Virus record (IMG/VR): IMGVR_UViG_2537562019_000020
Length of the DNA: 6,659 nucleotides
Strand: one strand, 5' to 3'
Origin: a virus
Taxonomy: Duplodnaviria; Heunggongvirae; Uroviricota; Caudoviricetes
Shown: one piece after another, positions 2,219 to 6,659 of the stretch
Numbering within the stretch: position 1 is the stretch's first letter
How the letters are laid out: each line of letters opens with the position of its first letter
Translations under genes and position numbers: made by a program
The notes under the pieces: generated by a model
Databases searched by the model: none
What the model was told of the DNA's origin: nothing
Seen by the model: the letters and a program-made list of their open reading frames with translations, nothing else

Positions 2219-3376
2219 TTATACCTGTGCGACGTTATACCATGTGCCATTGATGTATTTTTGTATTGGTCTGAATACAGCCGGATCATCGCCATCAACA
2301 GCGCCAATAATGCCAAGCCCCGTAATTGCATGACCTGATTTCTCATACATCACGCCTTTTTGCATAGTCTGAACAACACGTGTACCAAGTCGGACATCTC
2401 TCACATAACGAGAATCAAAGTTACTCCAGTTGTTGGGGTTTATCTGACCGTTAACGGAGAACAATACTGAATTATCTGTATTTCTTTGACTATAAAAATG
2501 CCAACCTGAATCATCACCAAGTTCTGCAACTACGGGGCGGGATGAATTACCCCATAAATTAAACCTTGCATTCTTTGTGGAGTTGTTGGAGCTTGATAGC
2601 GAGAGTTTTTTACCATCTCCGGCCTGAATGTTTTTTAAAGCAATAGCCACGCCATTCTGGAAACGGAATACATGCTGACTATTAGCATAAACATCAAGAA
2701 GGCCATCGCCGTTCTGTTTGAAACCAGTATCATTATCCCCCAAAACAATCGAGTTACCGCCAAGAACACTGGATGTTCCGATGCCCAGTGCACCATTCAA
2801 TTGACCGCCAGATAATGACAACGCCCCAACCTCAGCAGCAGTCGGTTTAATGTGCGAACTGTAAATTACATATACAGTTCCATCTGTCAGGCCTGTTGGT
2901 TTATTCGCTGTATAAGTTGGTGATGTATGAATCGTTACGCTGGCGTTACTGGTATAATCCCACTGAATATTAACACCTGTGGCGTAATTACCTATTTCTA
3001 CATAAATGTCATAGGTATCACCGGATGTATTCACCCATGCAAAATGAGTAAATCCAACCGAGGTCCGTCGCCATAATGCACCAGTAATACCTTTTGGATT
3101 CCCATTTCCGGCACGCAGAACCAGCTCAGAGATGCCTGCTTGATGCGAGGAGCCAACGTTATACCCTGCGCCACCAATCAGGCTTATGTAAACCACGGAA
3201 CTGGCTTGTGGCATTGTTACAGTTGCCAGTTTGAACCATCCAGCACCACCACTAAAAGACATGGTTGTTGAATTTGTTGTGCCGATATTACGCAGGAATA
3301 GTTTTTTATCGGGAATATCTGCGCCGTTCTGGTTTTTCTGTAATGCGCCAGAAGCCTTATTTACCGTTTCCTGCAA
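2219..3376 (-). CDS. Tail-fibre variable C-terminal segment, alternative copy (Sv'-like). Frame is open up to 3448; the annotated start is a TTG inside the crossover site
   Basis: 385-aa ORF, Gly/Ser/Thr/Asn-rich, ending ...NFDSRYVRDVRLG...RPIQKYINGTWYNVAQV, paralogous to the end of the plus-strand fibre segment. Arrangement Sv-U / U'-Sv' is the classic Mu G / P1 C layout. Confidence 0.8.
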   Translation of the reverse strand: MQETVNKASGALQKNQNGADIPDKKLFLRNIGTTNSTTMSFSGGAGWFKLATVTMPQASSVVYISLIGGAGYNVGSSHQAGISELVLRAGNGNPKGITGALWRRTSVGFTHFAWVNTSGDTYDIYVEIGNYATGVNIQWDYTSNASVTIHTSPTYTANKPTGLTDGTVYVIYSSHIKPTAAEVGALSLSGGQLNGALGIGTSSVLGGNSIVLGDNDTGFKQNGDGLLDVYANSQHVFRFQNGVAIALKNIQAGDGKKLSLSSSNNSTKNARFNLWGNSSRPVVAELGDDSGWHFYSQRNTDNSVLFSVNGQINPNNWSNFDSRYVRDVRLGTRVVQTMQKGVMYEKSGHAITGLGIIGAVDGDDPAVFRPIQKYINGTWYNVAQV

Positions 3377-3393
3377 ACCGAGGTTTTTGAGAA
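3368..3393. other. Right crossover site (gix/cix-like), TTCCTGCAAACC-GA-GGTTTTTGAGAA
   Basis: Inverted copy of 118-143 with one mismatch; same 12-2-12 architecture with central GA. Lies 65 bp upstream of the invertase ATG. Confidence 0.8.
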
Positions 3394-3422
3394 TTGCCTC
3401 CGTGTCGTCTGAACGATATTTT
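3394..3422 (+). promoter_or_regulatory. Candidate sigma70 promoter of the invertase gene (TTGCCT-17-TATTTT), directly abutting the right crossover site
   Basis: Hexamers read by eye, each 4/6 to consensus with 17-bp spacing, about 36 bp upstream of ATG 3458. Weak call. Because it lies in the inverted repeat, a mirror copy exists at about 89-117 reading leftwards. Confidence 0.3.
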
Positions 3423-3457
3423 TTCCCGCTTTCAGCAACAATTGCAGGTTAGAAAGT

Positions 3458-4012
3458 ATGCAATACGGCTATGCGAGAGTGTCAACTTTTGACCAGAATT
3501 TGGAGTTACAACTGGAAGCGCTCAGGAGTTCAGGATGTGACCGGATTTTTGAAGATAAAATATCTGGCGCGAAGTCAAAACGACCAGGACTGGATAAGCT
3601 GATAAAAGCGTTACGACCGGGTGATACGGTTATTGTCTGGAAGCTGGACAGAATGGGGCGTTCTCTGATTCATCTTGTTGAATTGCTTAACTATTTTTTA
3701 TCAAACAACATTGAATTTATTTCTGTTACAGAAGGAATAAAAATTAGCACATCAATTGGCCGCTTTGCCTACACAATGCTGAGTGCGGTCGCAGAGATGG
3801 AGCGGGAAAATATTATTGAAAGAACGCGTGCAGGATTAGCGGTGGCAAGGGCTAACGGTAGGATAGGGGGGCGCCGCTCAAAACTGGCACCCGAGCAATG
3901 GGAACAGGTCGGAAGGCTTATTGTGAATGGTGTTTCACGTAAACAGATAGCGATTATCTTCGATGTTGCTTTATCCACGCTTTACCGCAGGTTTCCGGCT
4001 GGGAATCATTGA
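3458..4012 (+). CDS. Serine site-specific DNA invertase (Gin/Cin/Pin/Hin, Din family)
   Basis: 184 aa. N-terminal catalytic motif YARVST.DQ with Ser9; conserved VWKLDR.GRS; GRFAY..L.AVAEMERE.IIERT; GRIGGR; C-terminal HTH ...RKQIAIIFDVALSTLYRRFP. Overall strong resemblance to Pin/Cin as recalled. Confidence 0.92.
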   Translation: MQYGYARVSTFDQNLELQLEALRSSGCDRIFEDKISGAKSKRPGLDKLIKALRPGDTVIVWKLDRMGRSLIHLVELLNYFLSNNIEFISVTEGIKISTSIGRFAYTMLSAVAEMERENIIERTRAGLAVARANGRIGGRRSKLAPEQWEQVGRLIVNGVSRKQIAIIFDVALSTLYRRFPAGNH

Positions 4013-4061: not shown

Positions 4062-5027
4062 TTAAGTATCAGTAGATTGTTCCTCTAGTAACAACTCAAT
4101 TCTGCTTAGTATTTCTTTAGATATTTTGCGGCTATCAATTTTTATAGTTACAAAATTACCTTTATATCTAGCAGTGATCCCTTCCCCATATTTTTTCTCG
4201 TCTTTTGTTTTTTCCTCGTCGCCAACCAGAACAGAGTCAGATAATATTTGTATAATCCGTGAAGATTCTAAATCCTCGCCGTTTTTTTTAATTGCCAGAA
4301 GATGATGAGCAGCATTGCTCATGGCAGCCATGTTTTTTTTGTAAACCTTAAACAAAGAATCTCCAGCACGAGCTGACAGTTCTCCTGGATGATTGAAGAT
4401 AGCTAATATATCTTTTGGTAGACCAGCTGTATTGATACAGCGAGTGATAATATTTCTATCTATATTTTCAGCCTCGGCTAATGCTTTAACGTTACCATCA
4501 AAGTCATTTAGCTTGCGTAAGTATCTCTTTCCTCTTTCGTATGCACTAATAGGCCTATAATCGTTACCAATTTGGGATAACCAATGCATCTGTTCATCGT
4601 CGAGATCACCAATTAAGACGCGATAGTCACATCCTGTTAATATCGCTGCTTTTCTTCTACGTGAGCCGTCAGCGACTTCAACGATTCCAGATACTTTTCT
4701 GGCGAAAGCTGGATTTTGTTGTCCAGACGTTAGAAAAGATGGGATTAAATCGGCTAGAGAGGATTCATTTAATAAATCTTGATCGCGTTCATTACCTAGC
4801 CATACCATTGTTGCCATTTCAACTTTATCTGCGGGAATTGTCTCTAACTTAAAGTTAACATTACGTCCGCATACTGGCAAAGTTATGCTGTTACCGGTTA
4901 ATGAGCTCAGTTGACGTTTTAAATCACCAACCATAGGTGATACGGGCTGATGTTCAGGGGCATGATGATTATTACTCATAATGCGATTAATATCTGGAGC
5001 ATTTTTCAGAAGAGAGCGCTGTTTCAT
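4062..5027 (-). CDS. sopB: Plasmid partition protein SopB (ParB family, type Ia centromere-binding)
   Basis: 321 aa. Motifs matching F SopB as recalled: ITLPVCGR.V.F; GNERDQ.LL; DLIPSFL.TGQQ.PAF.R.VSG; ADGSRRRKAA (ParB arginine motif); LSQ/R.GNDYRP.SAYERG; ITRCINTA.LPK; F.HPGELSAR.GD. Start ATG overlaps the sopA stop (TAATG at 5025-5029). Confidence 0.85.
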   Translation of the reverse strand: MKQRSLLKNAPDINRIMSNNHHAPEHQPVSPMVGDLKRQLSSLTGNSITLPVCGRNVNFKLETIPADKVEMATMVWLGNERDQDLLNESSLADLIPSFLTSGQQNPAFARKVSGIVEVADGSRRRKAAILTGCDYRVLIGDLDDEQMHWLSQIGNDYRPISAYERGKRYLRKLNDFDGNVKALAEAENIDRNIITRCINTAGLPKDILAIFNHPGELSARAGDSLFKVYKKNMAAMSNAAHHLLAIKKNGEDLESSRIIQILSDSVLVGDEEKTKDEKKYGEGITARYKGNFVTIKIDSRKISKEILSRIELLLEEQSTDT

Positions 5028-6193
5028 TATTCGTTCTCCCAGCGAGGTTTTATTAGATCATCAAAAATTTCTCGGCAAACAGGGTCCCATATAGAAACAG
5101 CATTTCTCCATGCATTCAATGTTGAACGTTGGTTTGCTGCTTGTTCAAATACTGTTCTCATTTTTATCTGGCCTTTACCTACTTCATCGGTAACGCGTAC
5201 AACCTGACGTAATACCATTGATCCCCATGTATTTCTTATTTGTTCTTCCATCCATCGTGATTGATTCCCTGTAGTGAGACTATATTTAGTCAGAAGTAAG
5301 CGAACGGTTGGCTCAAATCCACCTAGGTCAACGCTTTCCAATAGATCGAGAAGCATTGTGAAAAACTGCAGAACAGAAGCGTAATCAAATAATTCTGCAG
5401 GTGTAGCAACAACAATAACGTCAGCGGCACAAACAACGTTAATGGTTCCTGTACCGAGGTTCGGAGCACTATCTATAACGATAACATCGTAGTTATCCCA
5501 AACTGATTCAATAGCTGCGCGTAGCATAAGGTGTGGAGGATGAGGCAATTTACCCTGAGCATGATATTGCATGAGATCTGTTTCTATACGATGTAAAGCT
5601 AGGCAGCTAGGGATAATGTCTAGCCCAGGCCAACATGTTGGCTTTATAGCATATTCAGCGTTATCGCGTTCTCCTAAGTAAAATGGCAGTAAAGTATCCT
5701 CGGCATGGATATGTAAATCAGGAACATAACCGTGATACATAGAGGCCGTGCCTTGAGGATCGTTACCTTCAACCAAAAGAACACGATGACCTTGTAATGC
5801 TAACCATTGAGCTTGATGCACCGCAGACGATGTTTTATAAACGCCGCCTTTGTGTGACATAACGGCAAGCACAACAGGGTTTTTATCTTGTGGTCGTTGG
5901 TTTGGGTTGCCAAAAACTGCTCGCATACTGTTGATTTGATCTATGGTATAACCAGCACGACGTTCAATTCTTCCTCTCATTTCAAAGTCAGGTGCAGGTA
6001 AACGCCCGCTCTTTTCAGCATCTCTAATTGCTTGAGGAGTTACACCAATTAAATCTGCTACTTCAGTTATACCCCATCGGCGGGGGATACGCCGAGCTTC
6101 AGGACTATCATCACCGAATTGAGCGATAGCAATTGCTTTGGTCATTTCTTGACCTCTCGTAACACAATCTTGCAATAACTTTTTCAAAGACAT
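5027..6193 (-). CDS. sopA: Plasmid partition ATPase SopA (ParA family, type Ia with N-terminal regulatory extension)
   Basis: 388 aa. Deviant Walker A KGGVYKTS; long blocks near-identical to F SopA as recalled (EMTKAIAIAQF.DDSPEAR, VEGNDPQGTASMYHGYVPDLHIHAEDTLLPFYLGE, IKPTCWPGLDIIPSCLALHRIETDLM, VIVIDSAPNLG.GTINVVCAADV, WMEEQIR..WGSMVL, TDEVGKGQIKMRTVFEQA, IKPRWE). GGAG SD 7-10 nt upstream of the ATG at 6191-6193. Confidence 0.92.
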   Translation of the reverse strand: MSLKKLLQDCVTRGQEMTKAIAIAQFGDDSPEARRIPRRWGITEVADLIGVTPQAIRDAEKSGRLPAPDFEMRGRIERRAGYTIDQINSMRAVFGNPNQRPQDKNPVVLAVMSHKGGVYKTSSAVHQAQWLALQGHRVLLVEGNDPQGTASMYHGYVPDLHIHAEDTLLPFYLGERDNAEYAIKPTCWPGLDIIPSCLALHRIETDLMQYHAQGKLPHPPHLMLRAAIESVWDNYDVIVIDSAPNLGTGTINVVCAADVIVVATPAELFDYASVLQFFTMLLDLLESVDLGGFEPTVRLLLTKYSLTTGNQSRWMEEQIRNTWGSMVLRQVVRVTDEVGKGQIKMRTVFEQAANQRSTLNAWRNAVSIWDPVCREIFDDLIKPRWENE

Positions 6194-6214
6194 ACTGTCA
6201 TCTCCAGCTTGTAA

Positions 6215-6292
6215 CTTTGCTTAATAATTAAATCTTTGCTTATTTCTAGCAAATTTGCATGAAAAAGGCAAAGCAAAACGAAAAACGCAAAG
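6215..6292 (-). promoter_or_regulatory. sopAB promoter/operator: four CTTTGC hexamers in dyad arrangement around a central GCAAATTTGC palindrome
   Basis: CTTTGC at 6215-6220 and 6234-6239; GCAAAG (inverted) at 6268-6273 and 6287-6292; central palindrome at 6249-6258. Hexamer centres are symmetric at 17 and 36 bp from the dyad centre (6253/6254). Candidate minus-strand promoter TTGCTA (6252-6247) -17- AATTAT (6229-6224). The F sopAB operator is known to use four CTTTGC SopA-binding repeats. Confidence 0.6.
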
Positions 6293-6481
6293 GTGAATAT
6301 TTAAGCTAAATCATCTTTTGTTCTCCTCCCGAAATGCATGAAACGAACAACAATATAATAATAACTAATTGATATTCATCATATTTTTTGAAGAAAGGAA
6401 ATCATGTAAAACTAGGGAAACATGATAAAAATCATCAATGAGATACGTTTTCTCTATTAATTCTCCCAACCTTACCAACGC

Positions 6482-6626
6482 AAGAACACAAATAAAGAAC
6501 ACAAAAGCAAGGTAATGACAAAAGCATAGTAAAGAACACAAATAAAGAATTAAAGCCAATGTTAAATGAAAGAAGTCGCAGTCTGAGAACATTACACTAA
6601 AAGAGAACATTAATCAAGAACACAAC
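6482..6626. repeat. Cluster of short direct repeats of the AGAACA family in an AT-rich non-coding region
   Basis: Exact 18-bp direct repeat AAGAACACAAATAAAGAA at 6482-6499 and 6532-6549; further AAGAACACA copies at 6495-6503 and 6616-6624; GAGAACATTA at 6585-6594 and 6603-6612. Confidence 0.7.
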
Positions 6627-6641
6627 GGAACATAATTCCCC

Positions 6642-6659
6642 ATTATACGCGCGTATAAT
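6642..6659. other. Perfect palindrome ATTATACGCGCGTATAAT at the window edge; candidate protelomerase (TelN-type) telomere resolution site, or the edge of a hairpin telomere
   Basis: 18-bp self-complementary sequence centred at 6650/6651, truncated by the window end. The core TATACGCGCGTATA matches my recollection of the phage N15 telO core; the left flank (6623-6641) also resembles the N15 telRL left arm. Adjacent to sopA, as in N15-like plasmid-prophages. Confidence 0.55.

Follow-up and report, generated by a model that had tools for sequence, protein, structure and literature searches.

Genes, operator, and telomere at the locus

The stretch of DNA analysed here, 6,659 nucleotides long and referred to as the window, carries in order an invertible tail-fibre segment, sopB, sopA, an F-type sopA operator, a group of short repeats, and the telomere palindrome telO. 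The sopB gene (4062-5027, minus strand) encodes a centromere-binding protein with a SoPB_HTH domain that is 73% identical to N15 SopB, and sopA (5027-6193, minus strand) encodes a ParA-type ATPase. As sopA is transcribed away from the telomere, the repeats fall in its upstream region. Adjoining them, and outside the repeat family, is the sopA promoter-operator (6215-6292, minus strand), in which the hexamer CTTTGC occurs four times, as a direct pair on the plus strand (6215 and 6234) and an inverted pair on the minus strand (6268 and 6287). The members of each pair start 19 bp apart and the inner gap is 28 bp, a geometry that has been reported for the ParA/SopA operator of F, N15, and phiKO2 (PMC8465637), and the label “sopA operator” given in a preliminary description of this DNA is thus appropriate. 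Between the operator and the repeats there is also an inverted repeat, ATCATGT-N15-ACATGAT (N15 here being 15 nucleotides), at about 6404-6432, which matches pEA8_3 by eye and lies in a block (6301-6469) that is 85% invariant in 12 family sequences.

The beginning of the window is taken up by a segment of about 3.2 kb that is bounded by 157-nt inverted repeats (1-157 and 3354-3510, 98% complementary) and contains an inner inverted-repeat pair at 1125-1274 and 2067-2216. It holds two opposed sets of genes for a tail-fibre C-terminus and a tail-fibre-assembly protein (Caudo_TAP), and it is adjoined by a serine invertase gene (Resolvase and HTH_7 domains) at 3458-4012 on the plus strand. This is an invertible host-range segment of the Mu G or P1 C type on a telomere phage-plasmid. 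It is missing in several close relatives, which carry other tail-fibre genes there instead.

At the other end, telO (6639-6659) is complete in its left half, CCCATTATACGC, whereas 9 nt of the right half are included. The palindrome arms are at 6642-6650 and 6651-6659, placing the dyad centre, the tip of the hairpin, at 6650/6651, and the window ends 9 nt past it, with the left arm and the protelomerase gene outside. The telO core is identical to that of N15, and the inner arm motif together with the telO half-site matches N15 at 22 of 26 bases in an ungapped comparison. One relative (L076, NZ_JAUDQL020000005.1) has CCATTTTACGCGCGTATAATGG, a mismatch within the otherwise invariant telO that may be either a sequencing error or a tolerated variant. 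For comparison we used sequences mostly from IMG/VR, PLSDB, and RefSeq, and a scan of genome contigs gave three loci. The sopB-sopA-telomere end is 97-98% identical to linear plasmid-prophages of E. coli and E. albertii and 88% identical to phage PhiR46_1, in whose record a “telR site” is annotated at the corresponding end. Some related assemblies, for example pEA8_3 and pZ1323HEC0355-3, cross telO into the protelomerase gene, while those of other relatives cross it into an exact mirror copy of their own arm. In one of these (L002) the match to the window stops at the telomere, and telO is the centre of a perfect palindrome of 4,009 bp. Such mirror-image continuation past telO is therefore attributed to read-through of a covalently closed hairpin. 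Because of the gene order, the identity of telO, and the matching linear plasmid-prophages, we identify the window, from its sequence, as the right arm (telR) of an N15-like E. coli linear phage-plasmid.

The repeat region itself is non-coding. An open reading frame of 81 aa that spans the repeats (6365-6610, minus strand) was ruled out as a gene, since Pfam gave no match to it and 1-bp indels disrupt its frame in close relatives. A structured RNA was likewise rejected, as Rfam returned only a sub-threshold chance match at 6257-6333 (17 bits versus a gathering threshold of 35, E = 0.85). Inspection of the repeats by eye for the IHF and DnaA box consensus found poor matches only.

The repeat array and its restriction to the telomere

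All copies of the repeat in the window lie on the plus strand and point toward the hairpin. The outermost is a pair, AAGAACACAA-ATA-AAGAACACAA (6482-6504), whose members start 13 bp apart, whose cores do not vary among 12 relatives, and which lies 147-169 bp from the telO centre. A second pair, AAGAACACAA-ATA-AAGAATTAAA (6532-6554), lies 97-119 bp from the centre, and between the two is a decayed copy, AAAAGCATAGT (6519-6529), found in the alignment of relatives. Two copies of GAGAACATTA follow at 6585-6594 and 6603-6612 (57-66 and 39-48 bp from the centre), and a further AAGAACACAA at 6616-6625 (26-35 bp) abuts the inner arm motif CGGAACATAA at 6626-6635 (16-25 bp). Read directly from the sequence, the exact direct repeat AAGAACACAAATAAAGAA occupies 6482-6499 and 6532-6549, with further copies of AAGAACACA at 6495-6503 and 6616-6624, and every repeat that had been listed in the preliminary description was found at its position. 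Absent from that list were the inner arm motif CGGAACATAA at 6626-6635, which adjoins the palindrome, and a weaker unit, AAAGAATTAA, at 6545-6554, in the slot 97-106 bp from the centre, and a repeat search of the window returned a 22-nt repeat family with starts at 6483, 6533, and 6604. The decayed copy reads CAAACAYAAT in 11 of 12 distinct family sequences, and its slot is 121-132 bp from the centre in pZ1323 and pEA8_3. A 17-bp tandem duplication (ACAAAAGCAAGGTAATG / ACAAAAGCATAGTAAAG) is also found within 6501-6534.

These repeats are real and occur far above chance expectation. In the whole window, AGAACACA is found four times, in each case on the plus strand and within 6483-6624, while 0.24 occurrences are expected and none of 200 shuffles reached four. 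The region is AT-rich (27-33% G+C, with 52% A and 15% T on the plus strand of 6470-6638), and we therefore also shuffled the local sequence, preserving the dinucleotide content of the AT-rich stretch itself (6470-6650). The degenerate consensus RGAACAYWA has seven matches on the plus strand of this stretch and none on the minus strand, compared with a mean of 0.06 in local dinucleotide shuffles, and because none of 2,000 such shuffles reached seven, motif frequency, which the preliminary description had proposed as one of the points on which the repeats would stand or fall, is clearly elevated here. Shuffles of 6194-6650 gave the same RGAACAYWA excess.

The preliminary description had also suggested searching the rest of the replicon for clusters at the other arm or at dispersed centromere-like loci. 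We carried out this search in the relative pEA8_3 (47.4 kb), where the motif clusters at the telomere, on both arms, and in N15, and no second cluster of the motif was seen in either. All four copies of AGAACACA in pEA8_3 lie no more than 200 bp from telO (binomial p = 5e-9), as are six of its seven RGAACAYWA matches (binomial p = 2.5e-12), and in N15 the latter figure is four of six (p = 8e-8). The densest 400-bp windows of GAACAY are all at the telomere in both pEA8_3 and N15. A dispersed motif was accordingly rejected, as it is essentially confined to the telomere in these two replicons.

The array had also been proposed as a SopB-binding centromere replacing an F-type sopC. The array does adjoin the sop operon, and there is no sopC-like tandem array after sopB in the window. 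The centromere unit of N15 is the palindrome GTGCGACCNNGGTCGCAC (PMC7205306), of which there are five in pEA8_3 and four in N15, all away from the telomere, and the window SopB, at 73% identity, resembles the N15 protein. In pEA8_3 (L005) the palindromes are at 720, 3163, 8056, 11065, and 11285, all on the replication/regulation arm and two of them 220 bp apart. A search of the window for SopB palindromes of both the F and N15 types (GCGACCNNGGTCGC or GGGACCNNGGTCCC) found none. In contrast to these palindromes, the GAACAY units are direct and non-palindromic, and units of this kind also occur in N15, where the centromeres are already known, and on the arm that carries the protelomerase gene. 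With five N15-type centromere palindromes elsewhere in pEA8_3, the idea of a sopC replacement fails, and we rejected it, giving the centromere reading next to no credence.

Correspondence with the N15 telomerase occupancy site

Comparison with the tel-flanking repeats of N15-like phages, which had also been suggested, revealed nearly the same slots as in the N15 tos (telomerase occupancy site). In N15 the unit family is found on either side of telRL, in the intergenic region between sopA and telN. Measured from the dyad, the right-arm copies in the window are at 16-25, 26-35, 39-48, 57-66, 110-119, 147-156, and 160-169 bp, with the weak unit at 97-106 bp, while those of N15, which are of the GAACAY/GCACAC type, are at 16-25 (R3), 26-35, 58-67, 100-109, 113-122, 148-157, and 161-170 bp. 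The two sets agree within 0-3 bp at 16-25, 26-35, 57-67, 110-122, and 147-170 bp. The counterpart of the outermost window pair is the N15 pair TGAAACACAA-TCA-AAGAACATCA at 148-170 bp, which is probably repeat R1, and that of the second pair is AAGAACACCA / CAGAACACAA at 100-122 bp, presumably repeat R2, so that pairs with a 13-bp start-to-start distance are common to both. Nearer the hairpin, N15 has CGGAACATAT at 58-67 bp, where the window has GAGAACATTA at 57-66 bp, and again at 26-35 bp, the slot of the window copy at 6616-6625. The window, PhiR46_1, and pEA8_3 families also have a copy at 39-48 bp, where N15 has none.

The position next to the palindrome requires one correction to the preliminary description, which had placed the copy at 6616-6624 in roughly the position of the arm repeats that flank telO in N15. 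A motif of the N15 type does lie beside the palindrome, but the copy named is one unit too far out. The positional equivalent of N15 R3 (CAGCACACAA, a sequence that the description had given correctly, as comparison with N15 showed) is 6626-6635; in N15, R3 lies inside the minimal 56-bp telRL target. The inner arm motif recurs in degenerate form in the outer units AAGAACACAA and GAGAACATTA, and N15 is built likewise, with CAGCACACAA inside and CGGAACATAT and CAGAACACAA outside.

The N15 feature to which the array corresponds was described in 2000-2002. Its natural TelN target has been given as 310 bp, of which the 56-bp telRL comprises telO and the 10-bp L3/R3 motifs, while L1, L2, R1, and R2 are degenerate copies of L3/R3 within the 310 bp (PMC12624138). 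Published primers for the N15 tos bracket exactly the same set of copies (PMC2847241). As the unit family, its orientation, the slots, and the primer-bracketed set all match, we identify the array, by homology, as the orthologue of the R1/R2/R3 right-arm tos repeats flanking N15 telO. The tos shares with the window the telO core, the 10-bp unit family, the orientation toward the dyad, and near-equal distances, and the order sopB, sopA, operator, repeats, telO, and then (in relatives of the window) the protelomerase gene is also the same in N15. The window differs from the N15 tos in having CGGAACATAA instead of CAGCACACAA in the R3 slot, in the extra copy at 39-48 bp, and in its spacers, which are unrelated, and its units are more uniform, four of them being exact copies of AAGAACACA. 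The same slots are also filled in PhiR46_1, two N15-like IMG/VR or GTDB loci, and a Pseudocitrobacter contig.

Patterns of conservation indicate that the units are what has been retained. In an alignment of 12 distinct family sequences, variation within the intergenic region is highest in 6470-6638, where 70% of columns are invariant versus 85-92% nearer sopA. Within this stretch, 36 of 40 columns in GAACA cores are invariant compared with 83 of 129 other columns (Fisher p = 0.001), and when entire 10-mers are counted, 67 of 80 columns are invariant compared with 52 of 89 (p = 2.5e-4). The sixth position of the motif switches between C and T among the same 12 sequences. When seven right arms from three lineages were aligned, the invariant columns outside telO were almost solely motif cores.

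These results weigh against another reading, in which the repeats serve a replication initiator as iterons or are non-functional remnants left by local duplication within the AT-rich DNA. Irregularly spaced direct repeats are superficially iteron-like, and the 17-bp tandem duplication at 6501-6534 would fit with local duplication. Leftovers would not account for cores that are conserved while spacers turn over, or for slots that are kept between lineages whose spacers cannot be aligned. As for iterons, there is no second cluster of the motif in pEA8_3 or N15, and the N15 origin lies within repA. We consider this reading very improbable, and the earlier suggestion of iterons for another DNA-binding protein also found no support, with the motif in pEA8_3 occurring almost only near telO.

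The left arm and protelomerase gene of the window plasmid lie beyond the window and are described here from relatives that are 90-98% identical. A mirror array beside the protelomerase gene is present on the other arm in pEA8_3, pZ1323, and IMG/VR loci. Its units mostly face the dyad; the exceptions are two reversed copies, at 31-40 and 44-53 bp, which have been kept from N15 to the window family and Pseudocitrobacter (e.g. 8664-8687 in L004 and 3334-3356 in L003); the two telomere arms are therefore built differently. The innermost slots also differ between the arms. In the window family the R3 slot has the accessory type of sequence, CG(G/A)AACATAA, while the L3 slot has CAGCACATAA (e.g. 8645-8654 in L004 and 868-877 in L074); N15 has CAGCACACAA on both sides. 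With CGGAACATAA in one slot and CAGCACATAA in the other, the telRL of the window family is therefore asymmetric, and as one enzyme resolves both telRR and telLL, it would have to accept both arm forms at a known contact position.

Candidate roles of the repeats and comparison with known systems

We believe that the repeats are probably accessory protelomerase-binding sites that form the right-arm half of a tos-type subtelomeric array. This had been among the candidate functions in the preliminary description, and it is the one favoured by homology and by the slot-for-slot alignment with the N15 telRL repeats. Each unit, of about 10 bp with consensus RGAACAYWA, is a degenerate form of the arm motif recognised by the protelomerase in its minimal target, at 16-25 bp from the dyad. 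The enzyme, whose gene is just beyond the telomere on the other arm, may bind the extra units through its C-terminal DNA-binding domain CTD1, the “stirrup”, and several molecules could thus line about 170 bp beside the hairpin. This would keep the enzyme concentrated where the replicated telRR junction needs to be resolved, and bound enzyme could assist in capping or folding the DNA end. Given that sopA has the array in its upstream region, as the protelomerase gene has the mirror array, expression of either gene might also depend, through occupancy, on the level of the enzyme. A recent study of TelN speculated in 2025 that the outer repeats recruit extra TelN, protecting the hairpin, and its authors called it “conceivable” that CTD1 binding to all L/R repeats leads to a protective nucleoprotein assembly (PMC12624138).

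Any such role would be accessory. The 56-bp telRL alone is enough for processing in vivo and in vitro (PMC3540006), the flanking inverted repeat was dispensable for processing in vivo in a relative of PY54 (PMC10612081), and CTD1 is non-essential for hairpin protection (PMC12624138). The core reaction can thus proceed without the repeats. Possible accessory roles include efficiency at native enzyme levels, the architecture of the end, and regulation. The two reversed left-arm copies argue against a simple symmetric model.

The location of the array also raises the alternative that the repeats act mainly in transcriptional control, with the protelomerase or another regulator repressing an upstream sop promoter and the protelomerase promoter. 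This overlaps with the explanation above, from which it is set apart only by the output that matters. In its favour, the region upstream of sopA, a gene read away from the telomere, holds the array, and in relatives and N15 the protelomerase start codon is preceded at about 40 bp by the outermost left-arm copy (GTAACACAAT...). Dorokhov, Lane and Ravin, in Mol Microbiol in 2003, are said to have found that N15 has a second sop promoter, close to the telomere and repressed by TelN, which would also favour such a role. Against it, a simple consensus scan detected no sigma-70-like promoter inside 6470-6650, the sole match in the region being at 6410-6383 on the minus strand, between the repeats and the operator, where it overlaps the ATCATGT inverted repeat; furthermore, the known sop operator is separate, at 6215-6292. 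That control of transcription is the main function therefore seems rather unlikely to us.

It is also conceivable that the repeats bind a different sequence-specific protein, of the phage or of the host nucleoid. The accessory GAACAY differs from the inner GCACAC of N15 at one core position, and the reversed left-arm copies hint at a more complex architecture. However, the motif changes between phage lineages of closely related enterobacteria, which argues against a conserved host protein, and in relatives there is no other gene between sopA and the protelomerase gene. The near restriction of the motif to the vicinity of telO in pEA8_3 and the presence of an accessory-type sequence in the R3 slot, within the minimal protelomerase target of N15, also speak against another protein, and we regard this alternative as improbable.

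The change of motif between lineages is relevant to binding by the protelomerase as well. Using de novo counts of 6-mers, with arms oriented toward the dyad, we found oriented telomere-flanking repeats in every protelomerase lineage sampled, and the motif was specific to the lineage. The over-represented unit is AGAACA/ACACAA in the window- and N15-like lineages, ATAACACAAT in the phiKO2-like lineage (75% identity), and CGTAACAA in the PY54-like lineage (52-56% identity). With domain limits that are approximate, being based on the truncations in PMC12624138 and the extent of TelK structure 2V6E, the window-family protelomerase has an identity to N15 TelN of 77% over the whole protein and of 90% in CTD1, its best-conserved domain, versus 77-79% in CTD1 for phiKO2-like enzymes; the N-terminal domain is 79-80% identical to the phiKO2-like enzymes versus 76% to TelN. 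This covariation between lineages and the match in CTD1 are correlative only, and the whole phage genome diverges in parallel. Together, the conservation of slots, the restriction of conservation to cores, and the lineage-specific motif suggest that the outer tos repeats are selected sites.

It is tempting to extend accessory binding by the protelomerase to a functional subtelomere, and we put this forward tentatively, as a possibility that we consider somewhat less likely than not. About eight oriented sites might load a row of protelomerases through CTD1, fold or cap the last ~170 bp, and couple sop and protelomerase expression, with sites and enzyme co-evolving in each lineage and the asymmetry of the arms marking the ends. 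The interpretation given in the preliminary description is, overall, partly supported by our analysis. Taken alone, the array is an orthologue of a known N15 feature and changes little; its value is comparative, and these comparative signals would be the first evolutionary evidence of selection on the outer repeats. They also provide concrete targets for mutagenesis and may bear on TelN/tos linear vectors, which use the 56-bp telRL or the full tos.

Several known systems can be compared with the array. The same element, in the same slots, is found at the telR end of PhiR46_1 and in pEA8_3, pZ1323HEC0355-3, and others, whose sopAB are 88-98% identical. In the repeat stretch the window shows only 90-95% identity to the nearest records, and it differs from its relatives in the decay of the copy at about 6519-6529; none of the PhiR46_1, E. 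coli, or E. albertii linear plasmid-prophage records annotates the repeats. The centromeres of F (sopC) and N15 (IR1-4) are parts of the partition system to which the neighbouring sopAB genes also belong, but their unit is a palindrome of 16-18 bp (GTGCGACCNNGGTCGCAC in N15), unlike the units of the array. Around the telomeres of PY54, which has a 15-bp inverted repeat beside pal/telRL, and of phiKO2, around telRL, there are oriented repeats with an AACA core on both arms, as here, but with unit sequences that differ from those of the window (CGTAACAA in PY54 and ATAACACAAT in phiKO2). The Rap1-type subtelomeric arrays of yeast have unrelated proteins and an unrelated end structure, and the array here has no part in end-lengthening, so the likeness is one of analogy only. 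In both cases a short motif is present in multiple copies by the end of a chromosome, and the analogy with yeast-type subtelomeres has been drawn by the N15 authors themselves (PMC12624138).
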